Part shown: piece by piece, positions 6,475 to 39,138 of the stretch | Layout of the letters: each line of letters opens with the position of its first letter | How positions within the stretch are numbered: the stretch's first letter is position 1 | NCBI GenBank assembly: GCA_018662305.1 | Contig: JABJGI010000148.1 | Location: 1 to 62,711, forward strand | Direction of reading: 5' to 3' | Length of the DNA: 62,711 nucleotides | From: Porticoccaceae bacterium | GTDB lineage: Bacteria; Pseudomonadota; Gammaproteobacteria; Pseudomonadales; GM7GCV1 | The notes under the pieces: generated by a model | Seen by the model: only the letters and a program-made list of their open reading frames with translations | Told to the model about the DNA's origin: nothing | Databases searched by the model: none | Translations under genes and position numbers: made by a program

Positions 6475-8586
6475 ATGGATCATCACGCGCTACCTAACGG
6501 CTTCATGCTGTCTGAGTACCGAATCGACAAGCTTTTGGGCGAAGGCGGTTTTGGTCTGACCTATTTGGGTTTTGATACTCATCTGGAAAAGACGGTTGCG
6601 ATCAAAGAATACTACCCAGCGGATTTTGCATTTCGAAAGGATGGTACGACTGTTGTTGCCAAGAGTGATGCCAGCGCGAAGGATTACGACTGGGGGTTGC
6701 AGGCCTTTTTAAGTGAAGCCAAAACTCTCGCCAAATTTACCGATCCAAATATCGTACAAATATTCCGCTTTTTTGAGGCTCACGGCACCGCTTATATGGT
6801 GATGGAGTTCTGTGAGGGCGGAAACCTGAAAGAGCGCCTAACGCCCGATCAGCCCATGAGCGAAGAGGAAGTTAAGGCGTTCATGATTCCTATCATGAAC
6901 GGTCTGCAACTGGTTCATGAGAGCGAGATATTGCATCGCGACATCAAGCCAGAAAACATAATGTTTCGCCGGAATGGCACGCCCGTCCTTATCGATTTTG
7001 GTGCCGCGCGACAGGCGATTGGCGCCAAAAGTCGATCAATCACGACCATTGTTACTCCAGGTTTTGCTCCGATCGAGCAATACAGTTCAAAAGCAGTAGT
7101 GGGTCCCTCAAGTGATATTTATTCCTTGGCTGCCGTTGTATACAACTGTCTGACTGGCCAGAGACCTGATGATGCAATGGATCGCATAATGGTCGATGAA
7201 CTCGATAAATTAGGAGAGAAACCAAACTCCTCAGCATTTTTAAAGTCGATAGACAAAGCTCTGTCCGTTCACGCGGAGCAGCGTCCGCAGAACCTGATTG
7301 ACTGGTATGAAGCCTGGCAAGAGCAAGACGAAGAAGGCGAAGATTCAGTCGCAGCAGAATCTGACCGTTCAATTCGCAAACCGGCAGACCCCACAGTCGT
7401 TATCCCCCGCGAAGAGCAAACTAAAGAAGGGAAAAACAGCGGAGGAAATAATTTCCGCGCACTACCAGTAATCATTATCGTTTTCGTTCTTGCCGGACTA
7501 GGTATTGGGGCCTATAACTTTATGGGCTCACCGGATCCCGACATAACCGATACCACAGGTGAACAAGGCGTCGGGGAAGGAAATGGAGATGTATCTAATG
7601 TGCAAGAAACTGTTGCGGAAGAAATATTACCAACTTCCTCGTCGGAAGAATCTGAGGCTGAAGCCCTGCGCCAGCTGGTGATGGATGTACAGTCCGAATT
7701 GCTGCGATTGGGCTATGACATCGGCACCGCAGATGGTGTTTTAGGTGCGCGAACTACCGCGGCGGTCGGTTATTTTCAGGCGGCTACCGGAACGACGGTG
7801 GACGGTGAAATTGACGAGGTTTTGTTATCTGCCCTGCAATCCACACAAAGCCGCCCCGGGCCTTCACCAGGCGACAGCATTCAGGACTGTGATGAGTGCC
7901 CGCAACTGGTTGTCATCCCAGAAGGAAGTTTCGACATGGGCTCCAATTCTGAAGGGGAAAGCGAGCGGCCTCTAACTTCGGTCAGTATTCGCCAGCCCAT
8001 TGCTATTGGTGTCTATGAAGTTACTTTTGACGAGTGGGGCACTTGCATTCTCGAAGGCGGTTGTTCGACAAGACCCTATTCAGAAGGTTGGGGCCGAGGT
8101 ACTCGCCCGGTGATGAATGTGAGTTGGGAAGATACTCAGCAATATCTTGCCTGGCTAAATAATAAAACCGGTGAGTCCTACCGATTACCCTCAGAAGCAG
8201 AATGGGAGTACGCGGCACGTGCCGGCACATCTACAGATTATTTCTGGGGTACTGATGTCGGTTCATATCGAGCCAACTGTGATGGTTGTGGCAGCGAGTG
8301 GGACAATGAACAAACGGCGCCAGCCGGAAGCTTCTCACCAAACAATTTTGGTCTCTATGACGTTCATGGCAACGTCAATGAATGGGTACAGGATTGCTGG
8401 TACGACAATCACGCTGGGGCTTCCGGAAATGAGGCAGCCCGAGAGTACAGTGGCTGTACTGACCGCGTATACAAAGGCGGATCTTGGTATAGCTACGCTG
8501 AGTTTCTGCGAGTTAGCAACCGAACCCCACAGGCCGCGTCAGAAATTCGCTCCTGGACTGGATTTCGTGTCGTTAGAGACCTCTAA
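6475..8586 (+). CDS. Hanks-type Ser/Thr kinase - TM - peptidoglycan-binding domain - FGE/SUMF1-like domain
   Basis: 703 aa. GEGGFGLTY, VAIKEY, HRDIKPENIM, DFGAAR, GFAPIEQY. TM LPVIIIVFVLAGLGIGAY. PG_binding-like LLRLGYDIGTADGVLGARTTAAVGYFQ. C-terminal FGE-type CDECPQLVVIPEGSFDMGS...YRLPSEAEWEYAARAG...GLYDVHGNVNEW...KGGSW...GFRVV. Confidence 0.85.
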   Translation: MDHHALPNGFMLSEYRIDKLLGEGGFGLTYLGFDTHLEKTVAIKEYYPADFAFRKDGTTVVAKSDASAKDYDWGLQAFLSEAKTLAKFTDPNIVQIFRFFEAHGTAYMVMEFCEGGNLKERLTPDQPMSEEEVKAFMIPIMNGLQLVHESEILHRDIKPENIMFRRNGTPVLIDFGAARQAIGAKSRSITTIVTPGFAPIEQYSSKAVVGPSSDIYSLAAVVYNCLTGQRPDDAMDRIMVDELDKLGEKPNSSAFLKSIDKALSVHAEQRPQNLIDWYEAWQEQDEEGEDSVAAESDRSIRKPADPTVVIPREEQTKEGKNSGGNNFRALPVIIIVFVLAGLGIGAYNFMGSPDPDITDTTGEQGVGEGNGDVSNVQETVAEEILPTSSSEESEAEALRQLVMDVQSELLRLGYDIGTADGVLGARTTAAVGYFQAATGTTVDGEIDEVLLSALQSTQSRPGPSPGDSIQDCDECPQLVVIPEGSFDMGSNSEGESERPLTSVSIRQPIAIGVYEVTFDEWGTCILEGGCSTRPYSEGWGRGTRPVMNVSWEDTQQYLAWLNNKTGESYRLPSEAEWEYAARAGTSTDYFWGTDVGSYRANCDGCGSEWDNEQTAPAGSFSPNNFGLYDVHGNVNEWVQDCWYDNHAGASGNEAAREYSGCTDRVYKGGSWYSYAEFLRVSNRTPQAASEIRSWTGFRVVRDL

Positions 8587-8628: not shown

Positions 8629-9648
8629 TTAGTCTGAAGCTCGCAAGAACATGCTTGCCGCTTCAGGGTCGCAGTTATAGGGCTCGGGAACTACGTGGGG
8701 GGAATAGATCAATTCGCGTGCGTGGCGAATAGGTGATGCCATGAATTCAGGGTCTTCGACAACAAATTCAAGGGCAATACGCTCTCCATTATCAATTAAC
8801 CTATAACGCTCCACGACGCGCTTCTGCGCGCCAGAGGGAACGCCAATTTGGTAAGGCGCACGGTGATCGGTGAAATTTGCCGTGTTGACCACTAGCGTGT
8901 CACCTTCCCAGTGACCGATCGAATGACCTGTCTGGAAACGCTCACTGATGTCGGGATGCCCACGACCATCCATATGGACGACCCGAACCTCGTCCCAATA
9001 TTCTGTTTGGATGAGGATAGTGTCTTCATCTTGAAAAACGAATTCGATAGGGAAGAGAGTGCTTGAAAGGAGCATTCCTGGTGTCGGTCGACCGACGCAG
9101 CCCGCCATAGGATTTTCGGCGGACAGAGGTTCAAATGCCTCCAGAGCAGCGCGTCCCTTTTCGGTCAGTTCGATGTGAGCCAGAATAAATGCGTCAAATT
9201 CGAACTCACCGTCCGGCAGGCTAGCGTGATCGGTCATCCACAATCCCTCTAGGGTTGTTGCAGCAGCCTGAACAGCGGGCGTATAAAAATTCACGCCTGA
9301 AATCATGCCCTGTTCTAAGTCGACTGAGTCGACCAGACCGTAAGGACGACCATTGACCGCGGCGTGCACTCTCGTCACCACCTGGTCTCCGACACTCAAG
9401 GTGTTCTCCGTCCATCCCATACGCGATGCGGAAGGGATTGAACCCAGTTGCATGGACCACTCCTCGGTCTCACCAGATTCCCCCATTGTCTCGAGCGTGA
9501 AATATGCGTGGGGATTACGCCAATAGAACCCAGTGATGCTTCCTTCAAAGCTTGTGAGGTTCTCCATATCCAAACCTGCATCGCTGTGATGTGCGCTTGC
9601 GGTTGCCGCAAAAAATAAAGCCAGGCTGCATAAGATTAGGGTTTTCAT
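8629..9648 (-). CDS. secreted HH-NPH family protein, long form (P1; DUF6152-like N-terminal module, recalled from memory)
   Basis: 339 aa. Signal peptide ending ATASA then HHSDAG. WRNPH. C-terminal GHSIGHWEGDTLVVNT, VVERY, EDPEF, two Cys in the mature part. AAGGAG upstream. Confidence 0.7.
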   Translation of the reverse strand: MKTLILCSLALFFAATASAHHSDAGLDMENLTSFEGSITGFYWRNPHAYFTLETMGESGETEEWSMQLGSIPSASRMGWTENTLSVGDQVVTRVHAAVNGRPYGLVDSVDLEQGMISGVNFYTPAVQAAATTLEGLWMTDHASLPDGEFEFDAFILAHIELTEKGRAALEAFEPLSAENPMAGCVGRPTPGMLLSSTLFPIEFVFQDEDTILIQTEYWDEVRVVHMDGRGHPDISERFQTGHSIGHWEGDTLVVNTANFTDHRAPYQIGVPSGAQKRVVERYRLIDNGERIALEFVVEDPEFMASPIRHARELIYSPHVVPEPYNCDPEAASMFLRASD

Positions 9649-9696
9649 CGTCGCTCTCCTTTAGTGAGGCTTCATCTCGCTAGATCAGAAAATCAC

Positions 9697-10617
9697 TTAT
9701 CCGAGTGAATGGAAGTGTTCAAACATCCTTTGTCGCATCGCTTCGTCGGGCAGACGTCCAAATCCTGAACTCATATTGTCTAGGGCGTAACGGGGGTTTC
9801 TGGTTTCCGACAGGGCGCATGTCACAGCGGGATGAGAGAGGATGTATTTGAGTGAAAACTGGGCCCAGGAAGTACAATCGAATTCCGCTGCCCAATCTGG
9901 AAGTTCGTGTCCAGCTACCGTGCCAAAGTAGGCGCCATTAACAAAGGGCCGGGTGGTTATCACGGCGACGCCGTTCGCCATTGCCGCAGGCAGAACACGG
10001 TTCGCCGCGTCAGGCTGAAGCATGGAATAGTTGACCTGCATAATATCCAATTCGCCGGCCTCGATAAGTTTCAGAGTTTGCTCTTCTTCTACCTGGTCAG
10101 TGGTATGAGTTATGCCAATGTAGCGCGTTCGTCCCGCATCCTTCCAATCTTTAAGAGTGGGCCAATGGTTGTCCATATCCATCAAGAGGTTGACCATTAA
10201 AAGGTCGGCGGGATTTTTACGCATCGAACGCTGCAATATCTCAAGGTGCTCAATTCCCTCCTGTTTTCCAGTCACCGTGATTTTTGCAGAGAGAAAGGTC
10301 TCGTCCAGCACGTCCATCTCTTCGAGAAGAGAGCCCAAAACCGGAATTCGGCCCCGCAGAATCGAAGGGTTATCTATCACTTTTCCACCCATCTCAAGCA
10401 TGGTCTGAACTACGGACATAGGTACTTCCTTGCCGCCCTCCGGAAGTTCCATAAACACCGGTGAGGAGCCGAGCCCGCACACAGGTAACTCCTCGCCAGT
10501 TTTGGGTATCGCCCGTCTGCGCATGCTCTCCTGAGCTAGTGCAGGAGTTGGCAGCGTTGCAGCAACTGTGGAGGCTGCGCTAGCTGAAAGAAATTGTCTT
10601 CGGTTAAAGCTATTCAT
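9697..10617 (-). CDS. Tat-signal aldo/keto-reductase-fold protein
   Basis: Start moved to the internal ATG (MNSFNRRQFLSASAASTVAATLPTPALA), 8 nt after the stop of the upstream gene. Twin-arginine motif RRQFL. AKR-like (beta/alpha)8 motifs FLSAKITV, YIGITHTT, ITTRPF, SETRNPRYALDNM. Confidence 0.65.
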   Translation of the reverse strand: MNSFNRRQFLSASAASTVAATLPTPALAQESMRRRAIPKTGEELPVCGLGSSPVFMELPEGGKEVPMSVVQTMLEMGGKVIDNPSILRGRIPVLGSLLEEMDVLDETFLSAKITVTGKQEGIEHLEILQRSMRKNPADLLMVNLLMDMDNHWPTLKDWKDAGRTRYIGITHTTDQVEEEQTLKLIEAGELDIMQVNYSMLQPDAANRVLPAAMANGVAVITTRPFVNGAYFGTVAGHELPDWAAEFDCTSWAQFSLKYILSHPAVTCALSETRNPRYALDNMSSGFGRLPDEAMRQRMFEHFHSLG

Positions 10618-10625
10618 CACAGATC

Positions 10626-11654
10626 CTATTGGCTGTCCGTGGCACATTGATAAGGTTTGATTTCTTCACCAGGAACCCAAGGGAAAACTTGTTCCTGTAC
10701 AACGGGCTCGGTAAAGGTATTGGGATCATTGATAGTTGCTTGCCAATGTAGGCCGGTTTCGTCTTCATTGACTGTCCATCGTTCCATAACATGCACTTCG
10801 TTAGACATCGGCGTGCCTCTGTCATCAAATGATTGAGCTTGAATATTGGTTGTTTCAACAACCAAAGTGTCGCCTTCCCAGTGTCCTACTGAATAGCCCT
10901 CGCGTGACGCCGGGAATTCAGCTGCGACGGAAATGTCTCCTCCCATGTGGATAGTGCGCACCGTATCCCATGATTCCAAGCGCAAGATGATGTCGTCGCC
11001 CTGCTGGCTAAATTCAATAGGCATGGAGACGTCCATAACAGCCGGCATGGCAGTGGGAATGCAGTTTAAAACAGGGTCTTTCGTAGGGTCGTAGGCTTCT
11101 TTCGACGCGGCTGCCGATTCAGTTAGAGGCAGTGGATCGTTGAGGTTTCGAACAAAGCCGCGAGACCAGGTGCGGAAAATGCCGTCCGCCTGAGCGATGT
11201 ATTCCTCAATATTTCGAGTTTCGATCTCCGGAACTGAGATGACCAGCTCCCGATCGGGCCAGCGACGTTCGGGAGGATTTCGAGGCCACAAGATAACCTC
11301 GAATTGATCTGCTACCAGGAGGTTGTAGGCGCGCATTTGATTACTGGCACGTCTGGCTGGTGGACCCCAAAAAGAAACAGTATCACCAAGGCTAAGTGTG
11401 TCCGGGCTTACACCCAGTCGTTCCAGCTGGTTTACAGCATTGCTTTCCACAATCCACTCTTCTTCCTGACCACTTTCGTTTGTGACTGTCAGAGTGAAAG
11501 ATGAATGCGGATTGCGCCAGGCGGCATCGGTTACCACTCCGGAGATCTCGACGCGCGAGTCGCCATCAAAAAATACCGCGCCGGAATGATGCGCATAAAG
11601 TTCGGGGGCAACTAGAAAGAGACCGGTAATGATGGCTGCTGAGATTAGTTTCAT
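10626..11654 (-). CDS. secreted HH-NPH family protein, long form (P2)
   Basis: 342 aa. ...PELYA then HHSGAV. WRNPH. GYSVGHWEGDTLVVET. Conserved Cys pair (VLNCIPT, YQCATD). Confidence 0.7.
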   Translation of the reverse strand: MKLISAAIITGLFLVAPELYAHHSGAVFFDGDSRVEISGVVTDAAWRNPHSSFTLTVTNESGQEEEWIVESNAVNQLERLGVSPDTLSLGDTVSFWGPPARRASNQMRAYNLLVADQFEVILWPRNPPERRWPDRELVISVPEIETRNIEEYIAQADGIFRTWSRGFVRNLNDPLPLTESAAASKEAYDPTKDPVLNCIPTAMPAVMDVSMPIEFSQQGDDIILRLESWDTVRTIHMGGDISVAAEFPASREGYSVGHWEGDTLVVETTNIQAQSFDDRGTPMSNEVHVMERWTVNEDETGLHWQATINDPNTFTEPVVQEQVFPWVPGEEIKPYQCATDSQ

Positions 11655-11687
11655 TGCGGATTTATCCTATGGCGTGTCTTGCTTGTC

Positions 11688-12707
11688 TTACTCCGAAAAA
11701 CGTTTGGCAGAATCGACTTCGCATTCGAAGGGCTGAACGGAGACGCCCGTTGCGGCGCGGTTCATGATCATGCTCCCAGTATAGAGATCTGTGAGATATA
11801 CCGGGTCTTCAATATCGTAATCGAGTGTAAGCACCTGCCCATCTTCGCTGACTGAATATCGCTCAACCACCCGTTTTTGCTCACTTGATGGGATATCTGC
11901 AGGAGGCCCCTTAGGTTGTGCTTCAGATGAAAGCCCCCAACGAGAAGCCGGATAAGCCTGACTTTCAATCACCATGACATCTCCTTCCCAACTGGCAGCA
12001 GCTACTCCCATATAACCGGTAGGATCGGCTGGGATAGGATCGGAATCAAAAGGAATGGTTCTGGTTATGCCGTAAGCCTCGTGCACAAAAATCACTTTTT
12101 CATCATCGATCTGAATATCCGTCAGATAGGGTGAAAGCTGGAGATCTGGAATGGAGAAGGGCTCACAGGTTGTCGCGGGCGAAAGGGTATGGTCGTAGTT
12201 CTCCGCAGCGATTTGTCCAGCTTCGTTCAGAGGTAAAGCCGGTTGAGGGTTCAGGAAGGGCAGGGGCGATGTCCACATGCCTTCGATGCCCATTCCGGCT
12301 TCTTCTTGGGCTGCTTGCGCGGACAGGTCAGGGTGCTCCCCGTAAACCGCACCAGATACTGCGGTCATGGCTCGACCGTAAACTAGGTTTCTTCCTTCTA
12401 CTCGGTTCGGCCACACCACTGCGGAGACATTGTCTCCCGGGCTAAAGGTACTCTGGGCAATACCCATACGCCGTAACATGATGCTCGAGGGGAGTTCGAC
12501 CTCCCAGACAAAGGTTTCACCGCGCTCATCTAGAGACTCGAGCGTGAAAAAAGAATGCGGATTGCGCAAATTAAAATCGGTAACAATACCTTCGATCTCC
12601 ATAGTCCTGCTGGGATCAAAATGCATGGCAAAAGCGTGATGAGATTGCGCTGTTGAGCAAAGCAAGCTGACTACGACAGCTAAGATCGAGAACAGAATGG
12701 CCTTCAT
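11688..12707 (-). CDS. secreted HH-NPH family protein, long form (P3)
   Basis: 339 aa. ...TAQS then HHAFAMHFD. LRNPH. SWEGDVMVIES. VVERY. Cys pair (TTCEPF, FECEVD). GGGGGAAG upstream. Confidence 0.7.
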   Translation of the reverse strand: MKAILFSILAVVVSLLCSTAQSHHAFAMHFDPSRTMEIEGIVTDFNLRNPHSFFTLESLDERGETFVWEVELPSSIMLRRMGIAQSTFSPGDNVSAVVWPNRVEGRNLVYGRAMTAVSGAVYGEHPDLSAQAAQEEAGMGIEGMWTSPLPFLNPQPALPLNEAGQIAAENYDHTLSPATTCEPFSIPDLQLSPYLTDIQIDDEKVIFVHEAYGITRTIPFDSDPIPADPTGYMGVAAASWEGDVMVIESQAYPASRWGLSSEAQPKGPPADIPSSEQKRVVERYSVSEDGQVLTLDYDIEDPVYLTDLYTGSMIMNRAATGVSVQPFECEVDSAKRFSE

Positions 12708-12972
12708 TTGCTTCCCCCAAGCATCATTGAACCAATTGGTAAGTGTGACTTGATCGCTAAAATTTGCAACCGAGCCTAATGCTGTTCCTTTCCCGAGAAA
12801 TCATGCGCCAAAGAGTCCCTTTGTGTCAGGATTTAGGGTCCAGGTCTTCAGAGTTTCTTAACAACCCTAATGCCGTCCTTATGCTAGTATTTTTGCGTGG
12901 CCTGCCGAAGTTGTTCTTCTGCAGGCGTATGGTTTAACCCTTCGGTATCCACTCCAACAGAGGAATAGTTAA

Positions 12973-13443
12973 TTGAAAAAACTGATATCCGCACTCACCT
13001 TTTTAACCCTCACTTTCTTCGGCTCGAATGCCTTTGCTCAGTACTCAGAGTACGGAGATCCCATTGGCACTGAGTTGGCCAAGGAAGCAGCAGCTGCGGC
13101 GCTAGCTGTTGTCGAGGAGAACGGATGGCAGATGGCTGTTTCGGTTGTCGATCCTTCCGGTAATCTTGTCTACTTTGAGAAAGTAGATGGCACTCAGCAT
13201 GCCTCCATTGAGATCTCAATGGCCAAAGCACAAGCTGCTGCCGGTTTTAGACGACCATCTTCAGTCTGGGTAAACGTTATTGCGAATGTCCCCTCCATTA
13301 CTACATTGCCTGGCGTTGTAGGCTCACCTGGTGGAGTTCCTATCGTAGTTGATGGCGCGGTCATCGGCGCTATCGGTTGTTCAGGAGCGACTGGCGAGCA
13401 AGACGGCATCGCCTGTGACGCGGGTGCTGCAGCAATAGACTAA
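12973..13443 (+). CDS. exported GlcG/HbpS-like (DUF336) protein
   Basis: 156 aa, TTG start. Signal peptide LTFFGSNAFA|Q. WQMAVSVVDPSGNLVYFEKVDG...ISMAKAQAAA...GGVPIVVDGAVIGAIGCSGATGEQD is typical of the GlcG/DUF336 family. Confidence 0.65.
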   Translation: MKKLISALTFLTLTFFGSNAFAQYSEYGDPIGTELAKEAAAAALAVVEENGWQMAVSVVDPSGNLVYFEKVDGTQHASIEISMAKAQAAAGFRRPSSVWVNVIANVPSITTLPGVVGSPGGVPIVVDGAVIGAIGCSGATGEQDGIACDAGAAAID

Positions 13444-13483
13444 GACACTAAATGAATATCTTGGGCCTGTGTGATGTCCAGGT

Positions 13484-13517
13484 AAAAAAAAGCCCTACCA
13501 AGTTGGTGGGGCTTTTT
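13484..13517. terminator. bidirectional intrinsic terminator between convergent genes
   Basis: A-run, stem GCCCTACCA / TGGTGGGGC (one G-U), 3-nt loop, then TTTTT. Confidence 0.6.
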
Positions 13518-13568
13518 ATTTAGGAGTTTTTATTTAGGGCTTCCCCCTAGGCTATTTTTTGAGCAAGG

Positions 13569-14528
13569 CTATTGAGGATTGCATTCGTAGGAATAAAGTT
13601 GCAGCTCTGGGGAATACACCAGAGTGGTTTGGCCCCTAAAGGGTTCTGAGAGATATTCCGGATCTTCAAACCAGATATCGACAATGGCCCGGGTGCGGTC
13701 TTCGCTAAGAGAATACTTTTCGATGACATGTTTGCCCGCGGTTGAGGGAAGGCCGAAAAACGCTCCGCCGATTCTGTGATCTGCCAGCAATCGAGTCTCG
13801 ACTACAAAGACATCATCTTCCCACCAACCAATGGAATGCCCCTGTGGGGTTCGTGCGCCATTTTCTGGATGAGTCCTTCCATCCATGTAGATAGTGCGCT
13901 CTACATCGAAAAATTCGTTTCTAATAAATGCAGCGTCCTCCGCGAATTCTATCTCTGTGAGGTAAAGAGCGTTTGAATTCAAGAAGGGAGGCGGCAAGGG
14001 TTCGCAGCGTAAGTTTTGCGTATGCGATGACTCCTCATATGCGCGCTCGGCTTGCGTACCCGCCTCTGTAAACTGAAAGCTGGTGTTGTTCAGGCTGAGC
14101 TCGGTTGAAGGCTCACCACGCCATACGCCCTCAATGCTTTCCGCAGCTGCAGTTACTTCAGGCGCTTCTTCCACCTGAATCCAGGTGTTTCCGTCTGCAG
14201 ACTGAATGCTGTTAAGAATAGCCTTTAGCTGACCGGTTTGAGCTGGGTGTGCTCTGACCTGAATCGCGTCACCCACCGCAAATAATTCTTCCGACCAGCC
14301 ACTTCTTCGCATTATGGGAGTCGATCCCGTCTCAATTTCCCATTGGCGGCGATCACCTTCTTCTTCCTGAACAAAAATGGTGACGTGGGGATTTCTGAAC
14401 TCGAATCCCACAACGGTTGCGTTAAAAGCGACAAGCTGACTGCGGTCATAAATAGCGTCGCTGTGGTGCGACCAACTAGCGCTTGCTATCAGACAACCGA
14501 GAACAATGAGATAGCTTTTCAGGAACAT
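13569..14528 (-). CDS. secreted HH-NPH family protein, long form (P4)
   Basis: 319 aa. ...SASWS then HHSDAI. FRNPH. GHSIGWWEDDVFVVET. VIEKY. Cys pair (LRCEPL, YECNPQ). Confidence 0.7.
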   Translation of the reverse strand: MFLKSYLIVLGCLIASASWSHHSDAIYDRSQLVAFNATVVGFEFRNPHVTIFVQEEEGDRRQWEIETGSTPIMRRSGWSEELFAVGDAIQVRAHPAQTGQLKAILNSIQSADGNTWIQVEEAPEVTAAAESIEGVWRGEPSTELSLNNTSFQFTEAGTQAERAYEESSHTQNLRCEPLPPPFLNSNALYLTEIEFAEDAAFIRNEFFDVERTIYMDGRTHPENGARTPQGHSIGWWEDDVFVVETRLLADHRIGGAFFGLPSTAGKHVIEKYSLSEDRTRAIVDIWFEDPEYLSEPFRGQTTLVYSPELQLYSYECNPQ

Positions 14529-14848: not shown

Positions 14849-15550
14849 ATGTATCCCTTGCGGTCGCTCTTGATTTTATTCTTCAGTTTTTCTGCTGCTC
14901 AGGCGTTTGCTCAATCCGAATGGGAAACCCCCAATGAGCAGGTTACCGGCGAAGAACTCTATGTCGCCTGTACTTTTTGCCATGGTCTGGAAGCCCAAGG
15001 GAATGATAGAAGAGACGGTCCGGCCCTTGCTGGACTGCAAGCTTGGTATATCGAAAAGCAGATCTACAATTTCAGAAATGGTTTGCGCGCGTACTCTGAA
15101 GAGGATATTCCAGGCAAGATAATGCATGGCAGCACGCCCATGATCAGAGACGAATTCACCATTAAGAGTATTTCCGAATACATAGCAGGACTTGAGCCCG
15201 GGCTACCTATGGCGAGAAACGCGGTAGGTGATAGGCCATTCGTTTGGGATTCTCCCTATGCGGGTTTAGATGAATCGATCGTTGGCGATGCCGCTGCTGG
15301 TGCCTCAACCTACAACGGTATCTGCATGATCTGCCATGGAGCTGAGGGTAGCGGCAATGAAGCGCTCGGCGCAGGCAGCTTAAAGTACCTCTCCGGTATG
15401 TATATGGAGCGCCAGCTGATGTATTTCAGAGATGGAATACGGGGAGCGCATCCGGAGGATGTAACTGGGCAGCAGATGGCGGCAATGGCCAAAACCCTAA
15501 CAACAGATCAAGCAATCGCCGACGTGGTTGCCTATATATTGGAGCTTTGA
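14849..15550 (+). CDS. periplasmic diheme c-type cytochrome (cytochrome c4-like), copy 1
   Basis: 233 aa. Signal peptide. Two CxxCH sites (CTFCHG, CMICHG), each followed by a W/M-Y-x-E-K/R-Q-x-x-x-F-R-x-G-x-R motif and a Met-rich distal segment. Confidence 0.8.
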   Translation: MYPLRSLLILFFSFSAAQAFAQSEWETPNEQVTGEELYVACTFCHGLEAQGNDRRDGPALAGLQAWYIEKQIYNFRNGLRAYSEEDIPGKIMHGSTPMIRDEFTIKSISEYIAGLEPGLPMARNAVGDRPFVWDSPYAGLDESIVGDAAAGASTYNGICMICHGAEGSGNEALGAGSLKYLSGMYMERQLMYFRDGIRGAHPEDVTGQQMAAMAKTLTTDQAIADVVAYILEL

Positions 15551-16224: not shown

Positions 16225-17268
16225 TTAATCCGTCAGAAAGTGATACATCCCTAAAACATTCTCATTTAGCCAGTTGTATCCAGCCCAATGCGCAAAGTCT
16301 GGAATCTCGATACTGGTGCGCATTTCTTCCAGTGATTGCCCATCATCAATAGCCTGAGACACGGCGTCTTCCAATTGTTGAAAATAACCGCGCAGCTCAG
16401 CGATGCTATCTGCATTTCCAAGTGGGCCGTGGCCAGTCGTGACGTATTCGTAGTCTCTGGCAATCACTTCGGTTGATTCGATCGCCGCCATCCATTCTGG
16501 ATACATGCCATTTTCAAAATCCATCTCTCGGAAGGGGAGGCGTCCGAAGGTGATGTAGTCCACCAGGAACATTACGCTATCCTCGGGAAAGCTTATCCGG
16601 CTCACATCATCGGAATGATTCATCTCTCCAACCCAGGTGGCAGTGACTTGCTTTCCGCCCAGCTCGATTTTTAGATGCTCGGTATAGGTGATATTGGGAG
16701 GCTGTACAAATGATAAGGGGCCTCGAACAATTTCTGCTCCGTTAAGAAGGCGATCTCCGTTTTCGTCGAACGCATCGAACTGGAGTTGGGAGATACTGTC
16801 GCCCGCTTCACTTTGGTCAACAAAGCCGTCTCCGTTAGAGTCCAGCGCAGCAACTGGTGCGTATTGCCCAATTACATTGGATAGAGTTGTGCTTTCTGGG
16901 GGCATTGCCAAGTTCTTTAGCATATTGGCGTGGCCCACATATTGAGCGGTGTCTGCAAAGACAGCTCCGCCCGACGCGTGATCCCAGTGGTTATGGCTAT
17001 AAACGACATATCTTACCGGCAGGCCGAATCTGGTATCGAGCTCGGTTTTTAACCATTCAGCGAATTCGGCATTAAGAGGGTCACCCAAAATAATTCCCTC
17101 GGAAGTCACCATAAAGGCGGTATTGTGATTGTTGTTCTGAGCACGATACACATCGCCTGCAATGTGGCTGATCACGCGTTGTGGTGCATTCTGAGCGCTG
17201 GCCGTATTTACCAGAAAAAATAGGCACAGGCCGACAAAGATCAAAATTGAGTGGCACAGGTTTTTCAT
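16225..17268 (-). CDS. exported metallo-beta-lactamase-fold hydrolase with an inserted EF-hand pair
   Basis: Start moved to MKNLCHSILIFVGLCLFFLVNTASA (GAGGAAGGGGGA upstream). HNHWDH (HxHxDH). Insert DSNGDGFVDQSE and DENGDRLLNGAE. Distal TGHGP. Confidence 0.75.
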   Translation of the reverse strand: MKNLCHSILIFVGLCLFFLVNTASAQNAPQRVISHIAGDVYRAQNNNHNTAFMVTSEGIILGDPLNAEFAEWLKTELDTRFGLPVRYVVYSHNHWDHASGGAVFADTAQYVGHANMLKNLAMPPESTTLSNVIGQYAPVAALDSNGDGFVDQSEAGDSISQLQFDAFDENGDRLLNGAEIVRGPLSFVQPPNITYTEHLKIELGGKQVTATWVGEMNHSDDVSRISFPEDSVMFLVDYITFGRLPFREMDFENGMYPEWMAAIESTEVIARDYEYVTTGHGPLGNADSIAELRGYFQQLEDAVSQAIDDGQSLEEMRTSIEIPDFAHWAGYNWLNENVLGMYHFLTD

Positions 17269-17359
17269 TGGATTCCCCCTTCCTCGAATCGATATCAATC
17301 AGGGTAGCATCAGACAATCTGAAATATCCTATTTTGGTCTCATCCCTTAACGATTCTTA

Positions 17360-22057: not shown

Positions 22058-23014
22058 GTGCTCGAATTTCCACAACCAGCAAAGGAAGATCCAAGAATCT
22101 TTATTGAAGATACGGATGCTTCTCTGCCTGAAAAACTCAATCCAAATACTCGCTACGCCTTTTTCAGCACCATTGCTACGGGTGGCAAATCCTTAATCAA
22201 ATCCTGTAAAGATCTCCACTTGGGGCGGACTATTGCTTACAAGACGCTTCGCCCCGAATTTGTCGACGATCCCATTGAGAATAATCGGTTATTAAGAGAA
22301 GCGCGTATCTCGTCAATGTTGCAGCACCCCAATACAGTTCCGACATATGAACTGGGGCGAGACAATCGAGGCAGCTATTACTTCACGATGAAGCTGGTGC
22401 ATGGCTATACCCTGCGCGAAATTCTCAACTATAGAGAGCGCTACGACTTGGGTCAGTTGATGGATGTTGTTATCCAAATAGGATTGGCCTTAGGTTACGC
22501 CCATTCCCATGGTGTTCTGCATAGAGACATAAAACCAGACAACATTCTTATAGGGCCCTTCGGAGAGGTGCTACTTCTCGATTGGGGGCTGGCAAAAGTA
22601 TGGAGTAAGGAAGGTGAAGCTGATCTGTCCGAGGCGGAAATTGACGAGTTTGATGCCGAGCAGGGAATGACGGGTCAAGGCAAGCTTCAGGGCACTGTCA
22701 TGTATATGTCACCTGAGCAAATTAAGCGCGACCCCTCTATCGGCTATTCATCGGATATTTACAGTCTTGGAGCCGTACTCTACGAAGTTCTGTCTGGTCA
22801 GACTCCCTTTACTGGGGACAAGATACAGGCGCTGTTGCTGCAGATAGAAAATGATGTGCCCGCCGACCCTCGAGAGGTGGCTGGCTTTGCTATACCCAAT
22901 GTACTTGCGACTTTAGCCATGAGTTGCCTGCAAAAGGACCCGCAAACAAGGCCTTCTTCAGCCGAGGAAGTTGTGCGCATTATGCGAGAGAATTGGCGTA
23001 TCTCGGAAAGCTAG
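22058..23014 (+). CDS. stand-alone Hanks-type Ser/Thr kinase catalytic domain
   Basis: 318 aa, GTG start 8 nt after AGGAGG. IAYKTL, HRDIKPDNIL, DWGLAK (in place of DFG), MYMSPEQ. No TM or sensor domain. Confidence 0.8.
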   Translation: MLEFPQPAKEDPRIFIEDTDASLPEKLNPNTRYAFFSTIATGGKSLIKSCKDLHLGRTIAYKTLRPEFVDDPIENNRLLREARISSMLQHPNTVPTYELGRDNRGSYYFTMKLVHGYTLREILNYRERYDLGQLMDVVIQIGLALGYAHSHGVLHRDIKPDNILIGPFGEVLLLDWGLAKVWSKEGEADLSEAEIDEFDAEQGMTGQGKLQGTVMYMSPEQIKRDPSIGYSSDIYSLGAVLYEVLSGQTPFTGDKIQALLLQIENDVPADPREVAGFAIPNVLATLAMSCLQKDPQTRPSSAEEVVRIMRENWRISES

Positions 23015-23168: not shown

Positions 23169-24230
23169 ATGTTCGAACAATTCAACACCAAAAGGAGTGC
23201 ATTTGTAGCACTTCTGTCAGCTCTTTTGTTTTACCCGCAGGCAGTTCTGTCTCACCACGGGGCAAACAACAACCCTGAAATGTATCTGGCAGAGAATCTG
23301 GTTCGCATAGAAGGCAGTGTCAGCAGAGTTTTTTGGCGCAACCCCCATCCAAGAATTATGGTCACTTCAGTTGACGAGTCCGGCGAAGAAATGGAGTGGG
23401 AGCTTGAAATGGGCTCCAATGTAAATGGCTACAACGCTATGGGTATTAGCGCCGATTTTGTAAAAGTCGGTGATCGAGTTCGAGCGGCAGGCGTGGTCTC
23501 ACGTCGTGATCCAAGCTCGATGGGACTACAGAATTTACTTCTCCCCAATGGTGAAGAACTCGTTACCCGAAATAACAGTCCAACGCTTTGGTCGGATGAC
23601 CGTATCTCCTCTGAACGGCGCGGTCCTACAGCAGAGCAAATTCGTGAAGCCGAAGCTACTGCCGATGGGCTGTTTCGTACTTGGGGCCGGCGCACTGGAC
23701 CTCGTCCGAGCCCAGAGGAATATTCACACCTCTTGACGGAGGAGGGCAGAGCGATGCAGGAAGCCTACGACTTCGCATTTGACAATCCTGAGTTGGACTG
23801 CCAATCAGGTCTAGCCTCAAACATGTTTGATCCAACCCCGATGCAAATCATTAATAACGGGGACCACCTTGTGATTTACACTGAGGAATACGACCTTATG
23901 CGTTCTGTATACATGACCGACGACCGTCCGGAACCTGAATACTCGAATCTCGGCTATTCTGTGGGCCGTATGGAGGGTGAGGTACTGGTGGTAGAAACCA
24001 GTCACATCGATTGGCCAAACTTTGATCCATACGGTACGCCACAATCCAGGGAAATGACCTATGTGGAGCGCTTCTGGGTCGCGGAGGATGACAGCCGACT
24101 GCAGTACCGTATCGAAGCAACGGATCCTGTCTATTTAACCGACACGATCATGCTAGAGAGAGAATGGATGTGGCAGCCGGGTGTGCAAATGGTGGAGTTT
24201 AACTGTGCCGCTGAAGTAGCTGCCGACTAA
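23169..24230 (+). CDS. secreted HH-NPH family protein, long form (P5)
   Basis: 353 aa. ...QAVLS then HHGANN. WRNPH. GYSVGRMEGEVLVVET. YVERF. Cys pair (LDCQSG, FNCAAE). GGGGGAG upstream. Confidence 0.7.
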   Translation: MFEQFNTKRSAFVALLSALLFYPQAVLSHHGANNNPEMYLAENLVRIEGSVSRVFWRNPHPRIMVTSVDESGEEMEWELEMGSNVNGYNAMGISADFVKVGDRVRAAGVVSRRDPSSMGLQNLLLPNGEELVTRNNSPTLWSDDRISSERRGPTAEQIREAEATADGLFRTWGRRTGPRPSPEEYSHLLTEEGRAMQEAYDFAFDNPELDCQSGLASNMFDPTPMQIINNGDHLVIYTEEYDLMRSVYMTDDRPEPEYSNLGYSVGRMEGEVLVVETSHIDWPNFDPYGTPQSREMTYVERFWVAEDDSRLQYRIEATDPVYLTDTIMLEREWMWQPGVQMVEFNCAAEVAAD

Positions 24231-34377: not shown

Positions 34378-35571
34378 ATGGCAAAAGAGAAGTTTGAGCG
34401 GAGTAAGCCGCACGTAAATGTGGGCACCATTGGTCACGTCGATCACGGTAAAACTACACTGACGGCTGCGCTAACACGCGTATGTGCAGAAGTATGGGGT
34501 GGTGATGCGGTTGCATTTGACGGTATCGATAACGCACCAGAAGAAAGAGAGCGTGGTATTACCATTGCGACTTCTCACGTGGAATATGAATCACCAACGC
34601 GTCACTACGCACACGTTGACTGTCCAGGACACGCCGATTATGTGAAAAACATGATTACTGGTGCTGCTCAGATGGACGGTGCGATTCTGGTTTGTTCTGC
34701 AGCTGACGGCCCCATGCCTCAGACGCGTGAGCACATCCTACTTTCTCGTCAGGTTGGTGTTCCATTCATCGTAGTATTCCTGAACAAAGCTGACATGGTT
34801 GACGACGAAGAGCTCCTAGAGTTGGTTGAAATGGAAGTTCGTGAACTTCTCGACCAGTACGAGTTCCCAGGTGACGATACTCCAATCATCACTGGTTCTG
34901 CTCTTATGGCGCTGAACGGTGAAGACGACAACGAAATGGGCACAACTGCGGTTAAGAAGCTTGTTGAAACTCTGGATGAATACATCCCAGAGCCTGAGCG
35001 TGCAGTTGATGGTGCGTTCCTTATGCCTATCGAAGACGTATTCTCTATCTCTGGTCGAGGAACTGTTGTAACAGGTCGTGTTGAGCGCGGTATCGTTACA
35101 GTGGGCGACGAAATGGAGATTATCGGAATTAAGGACACTGAAACTACCACTTGTACTGGTGTTGAAATGTTCCGCAAGCTGCTTGACGAAGGTCGTGCTG
35201 GTGAGAACGTTGGTGTTCTTCTGCGTGGTACCAAGCGTGAAGAAGTTGAGCGTGGTCAAGTTCTGGCTAAGCCAGGTTCTATTACGCCACACACCAAGTT
35301 TGAGGCCGAAGTTTATGTTCTGTCCAAAGACGAAGGTGGTCGTCACACTCCATTCTTTAAAGGCTATCGCCCACAATTCTACTTCCGTACTACGGACGTA
35401 ACTGGTGCGTGTGAGCTGCCTGATGGTGTTGAGATGGTAATGCCTGGTGACAATGTACAAATGACAGTTGATCTGCATGCTCCTATCGCGATGGAAGAAG
35501 GTCTTCGATTTGCGATTCGTGAAGGTGGTCGTACTGTTGGTGCAGGTGTTGTAGCCAAAATTATCGAGTAA
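34378..35571 (+). CDS. tuf: elongation factor Tu
   Basis: 397 aa. [24 protein letters not shown]. Unmistakable EF-Tu. Confidence 0.98.
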
Positions 35572-35588
35572 TAAGAAATACGACTAAA

Positions 35589-35620
35589 AGCCGGGGCGCA
35601 AAAGCGCTCCGGCTTTGTCC
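35589..35620 (+). terminator. hairpin after tuf (terminator/attenuator)
   Basis: 11-bp stem AGCCGGGGCGC / GCGCTCCGGCT (one G-U), AAAA loop, short T-run. Confidence 0.5.
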
Positions 35621-35640
35621 GTTTCTTTAAAAGAGGTTTT

Positions 35641-35716
35641 AGGCCAGTAGTTCAATTGGTAGAGCACCGGTCTCCAAAACCGGGTGTTGGGGGTTCGAGT
35701 CCCTCCTGGCCTGCCA
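35641..35716 (+). tRNA. tRNA-Trp (anticodon CCA)
   Basis: Acceptor AGGCCAG/CTGGCCT, anticodon stem-loop CCGGT-CTCCAAA-ACCGG, GTTCGAGTC, CCA. Confidence 0.9.
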
Positions 35717-35756
35717 AATAGACGCTGTCTCTTAGACAAGGTTTTAGATAGAAAGT

Positions 35757-36128
35757 ATGAGTACTGAAGAAGTTAAGCAAAAAAACGGTGCGCTGAATGT
35801 TGTGCTTTGGCTAGTAGTCTTAGTGCTGATAGCAGCGGTGCCGGTGATTAACTCGGTATATGCCGACGAATCGCTTCTTTATCGAGTGATGGGAGCCTTA
35901 GTTATAGCAATCATCGCCTGTGCTATTGCTGTGCAAACCTCTCAAGGGGCAGCTTTTTGGCACATTGCCAAAGGCGCTCGTACTGAGGTACGTCGCGTTG
36001 TTTGGCCCACTCAGGATGAGCGCAACAAAGCCACTCTTATGGTTGTTGCTGTGGTTGCCTTTATGGCAGTAGTTTTGTGGGGTTTAGACGCGATATTTGG
36101 CGCCTTGGCTCAGTGGTTGCTTGGATAG
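35757..36128 (+). CDS. secE: preprotein translocase subunit SecE
   Basis: 123 aa, three TM segments. ARTEVRRVVWPTQDE motif. Position between tRNA-Trp and nusG. Confidence 0.9.
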   Translation: MSTEEVKQKNGALNVVLWLVVLVLIAAVPVINSVYADESLLYRVMGALVIAIIACAIAVQTSQGAAFWHIAKGARTEVRRVVWPTQDERNKATLMVVAVVAFMAVVLWGLDAIFGALAQWLLG

Positions 36129-36665
36129 GTGACGAATTTGCGTTGGTACGTAGTACATGCCTTTTCAGGCTATGAAAAAAAAGTTGTAGGTTCCCTCCGT
36201 GAGCGAATTGAGCTGTTGGGGATGGAAGACAAATTCGGTGAGATCCTAGTTCCCACTGAAGAAGTCGTAGAAATGAAAGATGGTCAGAAGCGCAAGAGTG
36301 AGCGCAAGTTTTTCCCTGGCTATGTGTTGGTGCAGATGGAACTCGATGACGATTCATGGCACCTAGTTAAAGAAACACCTCGTGTTATGGGCTTTATTGG
36401 TGGCAAGGCAGACAAGCCGGCACCTATTACTCAGCGCGAAGCAGATTTGATTTTGCAAAGGGTGCAGGACTCTGGTGAAGCGCCACGTCCAAAAACGGTA
36501 TACGAGCCTGGAGAAATGGTTCGCGTTACCGATGGGCCCTTTAACGACTTCAACGGTGTTGTTGAAGAAGTTAACTACGAGAAGAGCAAGCTGCGTGTTG
36601 CAGTAACAATTTTCGGTCGATCTACTCCGGTGGATCTCGAATTTACTCAGGTCGAAAAAGCCTGA
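36129..36665 (+). CDS. nusG: transcription termination/antitermination factor NusG
   Basis: 178 aa, GTG start. [18 protein letters not shown] motif [21 protein letters not shown]. Confidence 0.95.
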
Positions 36666-36761
36666 TTAAAAAAATGTCTTTCACAATGGTGTGAAAGGCG
36701 GGGAGCCTAAGACGGGTGGAGACACCTTGAGGCGATAACACCCAATTTGGAGAAAGCTAAA

Positions 36762-37193
36762 ATGGCGAAGAAAGTAGAAGCCTACATCAAGCTGCAGGTG
36801 CCAGCTGGTCAGGCAAACCCAAGCCCCCCTGTTGGACCAGCTCTTGGTCAACACGGCGTTAATATTATGGAATTCTGTAAGGCCTTCAATGCTCAAACTC
36901 AGGGCACTGAACCTGGTCTTCCTGTTCCAGTAGTAATCACTGTTTATGCAGATCGCAGCTTCACCTTTGTGATGAAGACGCCGCCGGCAGCTATTTTGTT
37001 GCTAAAAGCGGCAGGCATTAAGTCTGGAAGCGGCCGACCTAACACTGAGAAAGTGGGCAAGGTTAATCGAGGTCAACTCGAAGAGATTGCTAAAACTAAA
37101 GAACCTGATTTGACGGCTGCAGATATGGACGCAGCGGTAAGAACAATTGCCGGTACTGCTCGCAGTATGGGTCTTGACGTGGAGGGTGTCTAA
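36762..37193 (+). CDS. rplK: 50S ribosomal protein L11
   Basis: Start moved to [43 protein letters not shown]. Confidence 0.97.
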
Positions 37194-37194
37194 G

Positions 37195-37893
37195 ATGGCT
37201 AAAGCATCAAAACGCGTTCGTGCGTTCCAAGAAAAAGTAGAAACGGGTAAGCCATATCCATTTGATGAAGCGGTTTCCCTATTAAAAGAATTCGCTTCTA
37301 AAAACTTCAGCGAAACCGTTGAAGCGGCGATCAAGCTAGGTATTGATGCTCGTAAATCAGACCAGGCTGTTCGAGGTGCAACTACTCTCCCTTCAGGCAG
37401 CGGTAAGTCTGTTCGTGTTGCTGTCTTTGCCCAAGGCGAGAATGCGGAAGCTGCAAAAGCAGCTGGTGCGGACGAAGTGGGTATGGATGACCTGGCCGAG
37501 AAAATGAAAGGCGGTGACCTGGATTTCGGCGTGGTAATTGCCACTCCAGACGCAATGCGCGTTGTTGGTGCTCTGGGTCAGGTTCTGGGTCCACGTGGAC
37601 TTATGCCAAACCCAAAAACCGGCACAGTTACGCCAACGCCAGCGGTTGCAGTTGAAAACGCGAAAGCGGGTCAGGTGCGTTATCGAACCGATAAGAACGG
37701 CATCATTCACGGCGGCATCGGCAAAGTTGATTTTGAAGGTCCAGCGCTAAAAGCGAATCTTGAAGCGCTTGTTGCTGATCTCAGAAAACTTAAGCCTGCT
37801 GCTGCAAAAGGCGTATATCTTCAGAAAATCGTGCTCTCGACCACTATGGGCCCGGGCGTGACTCTGGATAGCACAACAATCGAGGCTGATTAG
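37195..37893 (+). CDS. rplA: 50S ribosomal protein L1
   Basis: Start moved to [11 protein letters not shown], 1 nt after the rplK stop. Typical L1 sequence throughout. Confidence 0.97.
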
Positions 37894-38111
37894 CCCGATA
37901 AAAAATTTGGGGGTCTGCTTTTTCTCTTTAATTAGGGGCAGAGCAGGCTGTCAAAGACCGCAGGAGCTGAGAGTGTTGAACTCAAGGCTTAATAAGCAAT
38001 ACATCCTGCGCAGATGGTGAACCCCAGCGAAATTTGCTGGTTACTTCACTGATTAGGTGGGTATTCGAATTTTGAATGCCTTAACAGTAACCAATTCCAG
38101 GAGTAGCACAA
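37894..38111 (+). promoter_or_regulatory. rplJ 5' leader region (expected L10/L12 autoregulatory leader and internal promoter)
   Basis: 218-nt untranslated gap between rplA and rplJ. In Gammaproteobacteria this position carries the L10 leader. The structure was not verified here. Confidence 0.35.
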
Positions 38112-38639: not shown

Positions 38640-38692
38640 ATTAATCGACTGTTTATTTATAAACATAGCAAAAATTATTTGGAGTTATAAAA

Positions 38693-39076: not shown

Positions 39077-39110
39077 TTCAGCTCTTGATAAGCCTAGTTG
39101 CTTGAATACC

Positions 39111-39138
39111 AAGGCTGGCGGATTTATCCGTCGGCCTT
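39111..39138 (+). terminator. rplL-rpoB intergenic hairpin (attenuator position)
   Basis: 11-bp stem AAGGCTGGCGG / CCGTCGGCCTT (two G-U), 6-nt loop. A partial terminator is known at this position in enterobacteria. Confidence 0.45.

Follow-up and report, generated by a model that had tools for sequence, protein, structure and literature searches.

Exported DUF6152 proteins with an invariant His-His at the predicted cleavage site are candidate metal-binding proteins that pair a predicted OB fold with an uncatalogued barrel domain

DUF6152 (PF19649) is the N-terminal module of eight exported proteins encoded within a 62,711-nt stretch of DNA from a Porticoccaceae bacterium (contig JABJGI010000148.1 of GCA_018662305.1), hereafter called the window. 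These proteins belong to an exported family of uncharacterised function that combines DUF6152 with a second, barrel-shaped domain. Two adjacent histidines directly follow the predicted signal peptidase site in every relative compared, and a third histidine located approximately 27 residues downstream is equally invariant. The best reading of these features, to which we assign a probability of roughly 0.45, is that these histidines (His1, His2 and His28 of the predicted mature protein) would form a metal site with the unmasked N-terminus, with copper as the favoured metal.

Invariant histidines adjoin a predicted cleavage site

An earlier note on this DNA, made from sequence inspection, had proposed eight exported open reading frames (ORFs) with a common N-terminal module. 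ORF calls recovered all eight at the same coordinates and on the same strands (Table 1). The note had also connected such proteins with DUF6152, and a hidden Markov model (HMM) search bears this out: all eight proteins match PF19649 over approximately residues 15-105, with scores of 46.5-78.6 bits (E-values from 4e-12 to 3.8e-22) against a Pfam gathering threshold of 27 bits. The similarity lies far beyond chance. The cleavage strings given for the eight proteins (ASA/HHSD, LYA/HHSG, AQS/HHAF, SWS/HHSD, VLS/HHGA, AIA/HHGP, VNA/HHTW and SMA/HHSF, where the slash marks the predicted site) are exact, as are the eight quoted x-x-(N/R)-P-H strings. An alignment of the eight proteins shows no variation at H20, H21, P46, H47, W64 and G87, numbered as in the 8629-9648 protein. 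Two other motifs that were described as shared are each found in seven proteins; W-x-x-E is W-x-x-Q in the 8629-9648 protein, and G-D is G-T in the 54821-55933 protein.

The mechanical ORF for the seventh member reaches 57068. However, a GGGGA ribosome-binding motif lies just 5' of the ATG at 57056 and supports this start, as given in the earlier note, over that at 57068. Among the six start codons with an inspected upstream region, five, including the one at 57056, follow motifs of the GGGGA type. A literature search found no paper that mentions 'DUF6152' and no published function, and a PDB sequence search with a full-length protein gave no significant match.

A scan of one genome per species revealed at least 598 loci carrying the family, and 80 of these, all from metagenome-assembled genomes, were fetched. 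They derive from Gammaproteobacteria (Rariloculaceae, Arenicellaceae, Steroidobacteraceae and Pseudohongiellaceae), Rhodospirillaceae, Acidobacteriota, Chloroflexota, Pirellulales, Opitutaceae and Sphingobium. Conservation was assessed with 135 distinct DUF6152 domains from 80 other genomes, using the numbering of the mature protein. His1, His2, Pro27 and His28 are present in 135 of 135 relatives, which are otherwise approximately 25-35% identical and come from several phyla, and the same histidine and proline invariance is observed in 79 close homologues. The proposed invariance of His1, His2 and the histidine of the P-H pair is absolute across phyla. Asn26 is present in 128 of the 135 domains, Asp8, Glu48 and Arg57 are 79-84% conserved, and Trp45 (W64 of the 8629-9648 protein) is present in 110, with Met, Tyr or Phe elsewhere. 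No methionine is conserved in this set.

The region preceding the histidines is also highly constrained. Position -1 is Ala, Gly or Ser in 132 of the 135 sequences, position -3 is small or aliphatic in 134, and a hydrophobic core precedes the site in 134. His-His directly follows the predicted cleavage site in all 135, as judged by a sequence rule, and the spacing between His1 and His28 is 26-29 residues (27 or 28 in 119 sequences). Family proteins carry Sec-type signal peptides and lack a twin-arginine translocation (Tat) motif. The small-x-small cleavage site abutting His-His that was described for the window holds there in eight of eight proteins, and by the sequence rule a -3/-1 site adjoins His-His in every relative compared. 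These patterns point to Sec-exported periplasmic proteins with a predicted mature N-terminus of His1-His2. Because two invariant histidines sit exactly at the signal peptidase site in every sequence, the terminal position itself is likely to be functional, and this placement provides the strongest comparative argument for such a role.

DUF6152 is predicted to be an OB fold

An AlphaFold2 model of the 8629-9648 protein was built on a 79-sequence alignment, with a predicted local distance difference test score (pLDDT) of 86 and a predicted template modelling score (pTM) of 0.82. For its N-terminal module, DSSP assigns strands to residues 32-44, 47-55 and 61-70, a helix to residues 71-76, and further strands to residues 89-97 and 103-111. 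A second model, made for the mature form of the short 59928-60344 protein (117 residues, pLDDT 84.8), has the same b1-b2-b3-helix-b4-b5 order of an oligonucleotide/oligosaccharide-binding (OB) fold. The N-P-H sequence forms the turn between strands 1 and 2.

Foldseek searches with the short-protein model yielded 92 matches at E<=1e-3, and those listed are exclusively OB domains. Searches of the PDB with the N-module of the 8629-9648 protein gave weak matches to the OB domains of lysyl-tRNA synthetase, SSB and PriB. Mean-field direct coupling analysis (DCA) of 370 domains (effective number of sequences, 294) produced b1-b4, b1-b2, b2-b3 and b4-b5 contacts that agree with OB topology, and one relative (P0354) has a precomputed match to PF01336. 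As modelled, DUF6152 is a five-stranded OB-fold barrel.

The DCA pairs 5-76, 7-48 and 10-60, which involve the N-terminal arm, rank 16, 24 and 41, respectively, and residue 7 participates in a beta-bridge in both AlphaFold2 models. These results suggest that the arm is docked on the barrel, where His1 and His2 may come within reach of His28. By strand register, residue 48 (the conserved Glu of W-x-x-E) would be a neighbour of the first residues of strand 2, the location of His28.

An uncatalogued barrel domain is paired with DUF6152

A second domain of approximately 200 residues, which went unnoticed in the earlier note, is common to seven of the eight window proteins, and these copies align with each other. 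This domain has no Pfam match at E<=10 and no NCBIfam match at E<=1. Sequence searches of the PDB with two barrel profiles, like that with a full-length protein, found nothing significant, the best match of them all (E 0.56) covering 32 residues of phycocyanobilin reductase. In contrast, a profile of the seven window copies retrieves 6,459 representative proteins (one per 50% identity cluster) at E<=1e-10, and 12,856 at the looser threshold of E<=1e-3. With this many representatives and no Pfam or NCBIfam model, the barrel is a large uncatalogued domain. It also occurs alone behind a signal peptide (~220-270 aa) and as tandem copies, and it is often preceded by a 'G-x-P-D-L-S/N-G-x-W' motif. 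One 538-aa relative (L081:2647-4263) carries DUF6152, the barrel and a third, Cys-containing C-terminal domain with a weak match to DUF1554 (E 0.023).

Among 143 copies of the barrel, C184, G241 and E280 are present in all, R222 in 142, and S243 and D299 in 140 each, whereas C326 is found in all 136 sequences that have no gap at this position. The two conserved cysteines are predicted to be joined by a disulfide, as would suit a periplasmic protein, and the conserved Arg, Ser, Glu and Asp residues may mark a ligand pocket. In the AlphaFold2 model of the 8629-9648 protein, the C-terminal module is a beta-barrel that follows short helices. Its Foldseek matches are SAHS4, UnaG and NanoLuc (E ~1e-3, probability ~1.0, target-normalised TM-scores of 0.47-0.58), which inform on fold class only.

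The pairing of the two modules was surveyed by ORF and HMM searches of the 80 loci plus the window. Among 199 family ORFs, 99 are fused, 58 are barrel-only, 40 are DUF6152-only and 2 have a duplicated module, and up to nine family copies lie within 13 kb. At six of seven evaluable loci with a single-domain DUF6152 protein, a standalone barrel gene with a signal peptide is adjacent (hmmsearch E 1e-28 to 1e-51), and in four of these six the genes overlap by 4 nt (Table 1). The exception is the short window protein with its orthologue P0128 (L081), which lies beside a sulfatase, or beside Sbt_1 and YceI. Because the modules are fused in some genomes and translationally coupled in others, this comparison indicates that DUF6152 and the barrel are obligate partners in one functional unit.

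A candidate metal site at the unmasked N-terminus

We propose that export by Sec and cleavage by signal peptidase I would leave His1-His2 as the free N-terminus of a 12-residue arm, which would dock back on the OB barrel near His28, the histidine of the turn that joins strands 1 and 2. A single transition-metal ion could then be held by His1, His2, His28 and the N-terminal amine, in a mononuclear site for which export and cleavage are prerequisites. Copper would be the most likely occupant, in an arrangement like the CuB type of particulate methane monooxygenase (pMMO), in which a histidine brace is joined by one more histidine, or like a NikM/GHK-type N-terminal four-nitrogen site. The C-terminal barrel, with a modelled shape roughly like that of a fatty acid-binding protein (FABP) or calycin, would use its invariant Arg, Glu and Asp and its near-invariant Ser to line a small-molecule pocket. 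Among paralogues, the metal module would stay the same while the barrel changed to suit different ligands. These would be periplasmic metal-dependent binding or redox proteins that act alongside periplasmic dehydrogenases, cytochromes c and hydrolases.

Copper histidine braces rely on chelation by the N-terminal amine and an imidazole, and the site arises only after removal of the signal peptide (PMC10952591). Copper is favoured here because this mode of chelation typifies copper braces, because the proteins are predicted to be periplasmic, and because there is a modest association with cytochromes. The constant abutment of His-His and the cleavage site, together with the spacing of 27 or 28 residues in most sequences, would be expected if the free amine matters. 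The cytochrome association was evaluated with CxxCH motifs, which occur in 13 of 238 directly adjacent ORFs versus 11 of 736 ORFs located at least three genes away (Fisher p = 0.0026). In addition, pyrroloquinoline quinone (PQQ) dehydrogenases with an N-terminal cytochrome c domain are encoded at 13 of the 80 loci, often directly adjacent and co-directional. The redox or metal-handling context suggested in the earlier note is therefore sustained in part, by the weak cytochrome c enrichment and the PQQ dehydrogenases, but not by copper or zinc homeostasis genes.

Several observations weigh against this reading. Cytochrome or PQQ neighbours are found in only ~15% of loci, and genes of the cop, cus, sco or znu type, which would signal copper or zinc homeostasis, are not among the recurrent neighbours at the 80 loci. 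No regulatory motif is shared upstream of the six transcription units of the window, where only AT-rich 9-mers were recovered. The arm is modelled with only moderate confidence, as the first ten mature residues of the short protein have a mean pLDDT of only 72 and residues 15-20 of the 8629-9648 precursor fall below 50. High DCA couplings of His1 and His2 to Pro27 and His28 were discarded as artefacts of invariant columns. Moreover, the three invariant histidines could equally serve to bind Zn, Ni, Co or Fe, or could take part in catalysis.

The fold also argues against a simple assignment. The earlier note had compared these proteins with the histidine-brace proteins lytic polysaccharide monooxygenases (LPMOs), CopC, YcnI and PmoB. 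Those families share a beta-sandwich, whereas AlphaFold2 and Foldseek give an OB fold for DUF6152. LPMO, CopC, YcnI, PmoB and CusF are absent among the listed Foldseek matches, and the first four are also absent from the Pfam matches. Because DUF6152 has an OB fold and lacks matches to LPMO, CopC, YcnI or PmoB, it falls outside every known histidine-brace family. To our knowledge, no known histidine-brace protein has an OB fold.

A membrane partner was likewise considered. DUF6644 four-helix membrane proteins are encoded adjacent to family members in L031, L053 and L089/L090, and P0241 has a similar fused C-terminal domain (residues ~370-531) that itself matches DUF6644 only weakly (Pfam E 0.68-0.98). 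Matches of the adjacent proteins to CopD fall below threshold (E 0.0013 and 0.014; 16-19 bits versus a threshold of 32), as do those to DUF2214. Equating DUF6644 with CopD fails on these sub-threshold Pfam scores and on an hhalign comparison with E. coli YebZ (probability 0.6%), which leaves the association as a minor lead. No DUF6644- or CopD-type membrane partner is encoded in the window. The DUF6644 proteins have an invariant histidine in helix 1 and a C-terminal A-G-R-x-I motif.

A bolder form of the copper proposal, which we consider a long shot, is that the family is a new class of copper enzyme, in which a histidine-brace-like centre on an OB scaffold sits over a ligand-binding barrel and oxidises periplasmic small molecules. 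Substrates would probably be hydrophobic or anionic, and c-type cytochromes or PQQ dehydrogenases encoded nearby would act as electron donors. Such enzymes would be a bacterial small-molecule counterpart of LPMOs, diversified into numerous substrate-specific paralogues among uncultured bacteria of marine, sediment and soil origin.

Alternative roles for the invariant histidines

The histidine triad might instead bind a non-redox metal (Zn, Ni or Co). The proteins would then act in the periplasm as metal buffers, or as chaperones that deliver metal to Sec-exported metalloenzymes encoded nearby. ZinT, a zinc protein of the periplasm that is calycin-like and has an N-terminus rich in His, offers an analogy. 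The enzymes to be loaded would be metallo-beta-lactamase-fold hydrolases, amidohydrolases, sulfatases and PQQ dehydrogenases, and metal-dependent periplasmic enzymes of these kinds are indeed recurrent neighbours. Metallo-beta-lactamase-fold proteins are encoded at 12 of the 80 loci and in the window (16225-17298), sulfatases at 5 loci including the window, and amidohydrolases and other periplasmic enzymes also recur beside family members. Zinc is commonly bound by three-histidine sites, the lack of a Tat motif implies that any metal is acquired in the periplasm, and a Fur-family regulator is encoded two genes from a family member at one locus (L089). However, znu, zur and nik genes do not recur near the 80 loci, and there is no Pfam similarity to ZinT or AdcA. 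Loading of neighbouring enzymes would leave unexplained both the clustering of up to nine divergent paralogues and the constant coupling of the metal module to a barrel pocket with invariant Arg, Glu and Asp. The strict requirement for histidine as the first residue is more typical of amine coordination of Cu or Ni. We regard this alternative as unlikely.

Even less probable in our assessment is that no metal is bound and that the invariant histidines act in acid-base catalysis, contact an anionic group of a ligand, or dock a partner, with the OB fold serving as a binding module, as it does in other OB-fold proteins of the periplasm. Ligand binding is the classic role of OB folds, and the structures most similar to DUF6152 are OB domains that bind nucleic acids. 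The moderate confidence with which the N-terminal arm is modelled and the presence of hydrolase and dehydrogenase genes nearby, rather than metal-trafficking genes, would also be compatible with a metal-free role. In opposition to this, histidine is the only invariant reactive side chain in DUF6152 (His1, His2 and His28 in 135 of 135 domains), whereas Asp8 and Glu48 vary. The exact position of His-His at the signal peptidase site would also be hard to explain if neither the free amine nor the terminal position were important.

Finally, CcmE is an OB-fold haem chaperone, and by analogy the paired domains could bind haem, another tetrapyrrole or a quinone-type cofactor, with OB histidines ligating iron and the barrel holding the macrocycle for periplasmic haem handling or electron transfer. 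This is very improbable: c-type cytochrome genes are enriched beside family members, an HbpS-like (PF03928) gene lies in the window cluster and bilirubin-binding UnaG is among the best structural matches of the barrel, but no family member contains CxxCH, the adjacent His1 and His2 could not both ligate one haem iron, HbpS-like genes occur at only 2 other loci, haem-uptake or ccm genes do not recur near the 80 loci, and the Foldseek barrel matches are weak (E ~1e-3, TM 0.5-0.58) and reflect fold class only.

Relationship to known systems

The closest systems in mechanism, by analogy, would be the histidine-brace proteins, and pMMO CuB in particular if His2 is a ligand, although fold and homology differ. 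Histidine-brace proteins (LPMOs AA9-AA17, CopC, PmoF1, YcnI, X325/Bim1 and PmoB CuB) are likewise secreted, with a distal invariant histidine and a signal-peptide cleavage that exposes His1, as is predicted here, and their site is likewise possible only after export (PMC10952591). In pMMO CuB a further histidine is added, as His2 might be here. These families have an immunoglobulin/fibronectin type III-like beta-sandwich rather than an OB barrel, share no sequence similarity with DUF6152, and lack an invariant His2. Their copper-homeostasis or polysaccharide-degradation context is not seen around DUF6152 at the 80 loci.

CusF, an OB-like Cu(I)/Ag(I) chaperone, is similarly a small periplasmic five-stranded barrel proposed for a single metal ion. 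Its site consists of a His and two Met residues capped by a Trp, within the barrel strands. DUF6152, in contrast, has no conserved Met, and its candidate ligands are three histidines and the N-terminal amine. CusF is not among the top 50 Foldseek matches, and cusCBA/RND genes are not recurrent nearby, which does not favour a CusF-type assignment. W64 was considered as a CusF-like cap and rejected, because it is present in only 110 of 135 domains, with Met, Tyr or Phe as substitutes, and because strand register places it approximately five residues from His28. This conserved Trp is probably a core residue rather than a ligand.

A resemblance to CopC-CopD/YcnJ pairs is limited to the minority of relatives that adjoin, or in P0241 are fused to, a DUF6644-like membrane domain. 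DUF6152 has a different periplasmic fold and an extra barrel, and the window encodes no such membrane partner.

Common b1-b2-b3-helix-b4-b5 topology is shared with other OB modules (tRNA_anti-like; BOF/YgiW), and the best Foldseek matches are the anticodon-binding domains of LysRS and AspRS, PolD, ExoVII, SSB and PriB, with E ~1e-4 and 10-20% identity that denote likeness at the fold level only. DUF6152 differs in being exported and in having a His-His arm and N-P-H turn that are absent from those families. The C-terminal domain is modelled as an all-beta barrel that follows short helices and is similar in size to the FABP/calycin barrels SAHS4, UnaG and NanoLuc. It nevertheless lacks sequence similarity to them, is larger (~200 residues), is predicted to be periplasmic, is coupled to DUF6152, and has a conserved, presumptive disulfide and its own Arg/Glu/Asp/Ser set.

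Genes surrounding the family in the window

Four family members lie close together, as had been observed, within a span of 5.9 kb. Three of these (11688-12707, 10626-11654 and 8629-9648) are co-directional with the gene for a Tat-signal aldo/keto reductase (9697-10647), consistent with the apparent operon described earlier. The gaps are 33 and 48 nt, and there is a 22-nt overlap with the mechanical reductase ORF. No terminator-like site was found between the operon genes on that strand, and promoter and terminator scans performed at chance level. The twin-arginine signal of the reductase implies periplasmic export of a folded, possibly cofactor-loaded enzyme. Homologues adjoin family members at two other loci (L036 and L006), such that Tat-signal aldo/keto reductases are found at 3 loci including the window.

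Cytochrome c genes are transcribed divergently from two of the window's family members. One of these genes (14849-15550) encodes a di-haem cytochrome c, and the other (52795-54540) encodes a cytochrome c plus a beta-propeller with weak cytochrome d1/PQQ_2 matches, homologues of which lie near family members in L002 and L024. The HbpS-like/GlcG gene (PF03928; 12973-13443), whose product has a signal peptide, is on the opposite strand inside the four-copy cluster and has weak homologues at the 2 other loci noted above. Genes for Ser/Thr protein kinases (6475-8586 and 22058-23014) flank family members. One of the two kinase proteins also contains peptidoglycan-binding and FGE-sulfatase domains, and the gene for the second is directly upstream of 23169-24230 on the same strand. 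At L093, two kinase-propeller genes follow the barrel/DUF6152 pair.

A signal peptidase I (Peptidase_S26) gene at 57633-58337 lies between two family members and is not beside lepA. It was rejected as a dedicated partner, as no homologue is located near family members at the 80 other loci, and its placement is probably incidental. The region 34378-51303 appears, from gene size, order and synteny with L081, to be a ribosomal-protein/rpoB-rpoC/str region, with suggested genes tuf, nusG, rplA, rplJ, two ORFs of ~1,420 aa, rpsL/rpsG and fusA. Family members adjoin this region in both the window and L081.

Table 1. Coordinates of DUF6152 family members, their parts and associated genes. Signal peptides are predicted; L and P identifiers denote loci and proteins of other genomes.
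Feature	Position	Strand	Details
Member 1, two-domain, 339 aa	8629-9648	-	PF19649 E 3.8e-22; AlphaFold2 pLDDT 86, pTM 0.82; signal peptide residues 1-19 (9592-9648); His-His 9586-9591; Pro-His 9508-9513; modelled DUF6152 OB-fold domain ends at ~residue 112
Member 1 barrel domain, residues 131-339	8632-9258	-	Invariant C184, R222, G241, E280, D299 and C326, from alignments
Member 2, two-domain, 342 aa	10626-11654	-	PF19649 E 1.6e-18; signal peptide 11592-11654; His-His 11586-11591; Pro-His 11505-11510
Member 2 barrel domain	10629-11189	-	
Member 3, two-domain, 339 aa	11688-12707	-	PF19649 E 1.2e-19; first gene of apparent operon; signal peptide 12642-12707; His-His 12636-12641; Pro-His 12555-12560; GGGGA precedes start codon
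Member 3 barrel domain	11691-12296	-	
Member 4, two-domain, 319 aa	13569-14528	-	PF19649 E 4.5e-19; divergent from di-haem cytochrome c gene 14849-15550; signal peptide 14469-14528; His-His 14463-14468; Pro-His 14385-14390
Member 4 barrel domain	13572-14144	-	
Member 5, two-domain, 353 aa	23169-24230	+	PF19649 E 4e-12; directly downstream of Ser/Thr kinase gene 22058-23014; signal peptide 23169-23252; His-His 23253-23258; Pro-His 23343-23348
Member 5 barrel domain	23661-24227	+	
Member 6, two-domain, 370 aa, Gly-rich linker	54821-55933	+	PF19649 E 9.8e-20; divergent from cytochrome c plus beta-propeller gene 52795-54540; signal peptide 54821-54889; His-His 54890-54895; Pro-His 54965-54970
Member 6 barrel domain	55256-55930	+	
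Member 7, two-domain, 351 aa from ATG at 57056	56001-57056	-	PF19649 E 1.3e-20; signal peptide 56991-57056; His-His 56985-56990; Pro-His 56904-56909
Member 7 barrel domain	56004-56585	-	
Member 8, single-domain (DUF6152 only), 138 aa	59928-60344	-	PF19649 E 2.9e-13; mature-form AlphaFold2 pLDDT 84.8; signal peptide 60282-60344; His-His 60276-60281; Pro-His (YVRPH) 60198-60203; co-directional with sulfatase gene 58403-59893, 34 nt upstream of sulfatase
Aldo/keto reductase with Tat signal	9697-10647	-	PF00248 E 5e-16; PF10518 TAT_signal
P0302 with adjacent barrel gene	L085-L088		Barrel upstream, 4-nt overlap
P0394 with adjacent barrel gene	L091		Barrel upstream, 4-nt overlap
P0335 with adjacent barrel gene	L093		Barrel upstream, 4-nt overlap
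P0313 with adjacent barrel gene	L097/L098		Barrel upstream, 4-nt overlap
P0351 with adjacent barrel gene	L095		Tandem barrel upstream
P0329 with adjacent barrel genes	L089/L090		Two barrel genes downstream
DUF6644 proteins	L089:483-977, L090:279-725, L031:9400-9891, L053:12191-13146		

Implications

If these proteins bind a metal through the unmasked N-terminus, an OB fold would for the first time be seen to carry such a site, and a third type of scaffold would have acquired the 'histidine brace' by independent evolution. A literature search found no paper that joins 'histidine brace' with 'OB-fold'. A family that carries such a site would apply an established principle to a new type of scaffold and combine it with a domain that is not yet catalogued. 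The barrel domain merits its own family definition in any event.

The family is large, extends across several phyla and is strongly expanded in uncultured bacteria, with eight copies in this 62.7-kb window and up to nine in 13 kb elsewhere. If even a ligand or a metal were assigned, tens of thousands of proteins now listed as hypothetical would gain an annotation, and unrecognised periplasmic chemistry in marine and soil carbon turnover could come to light.

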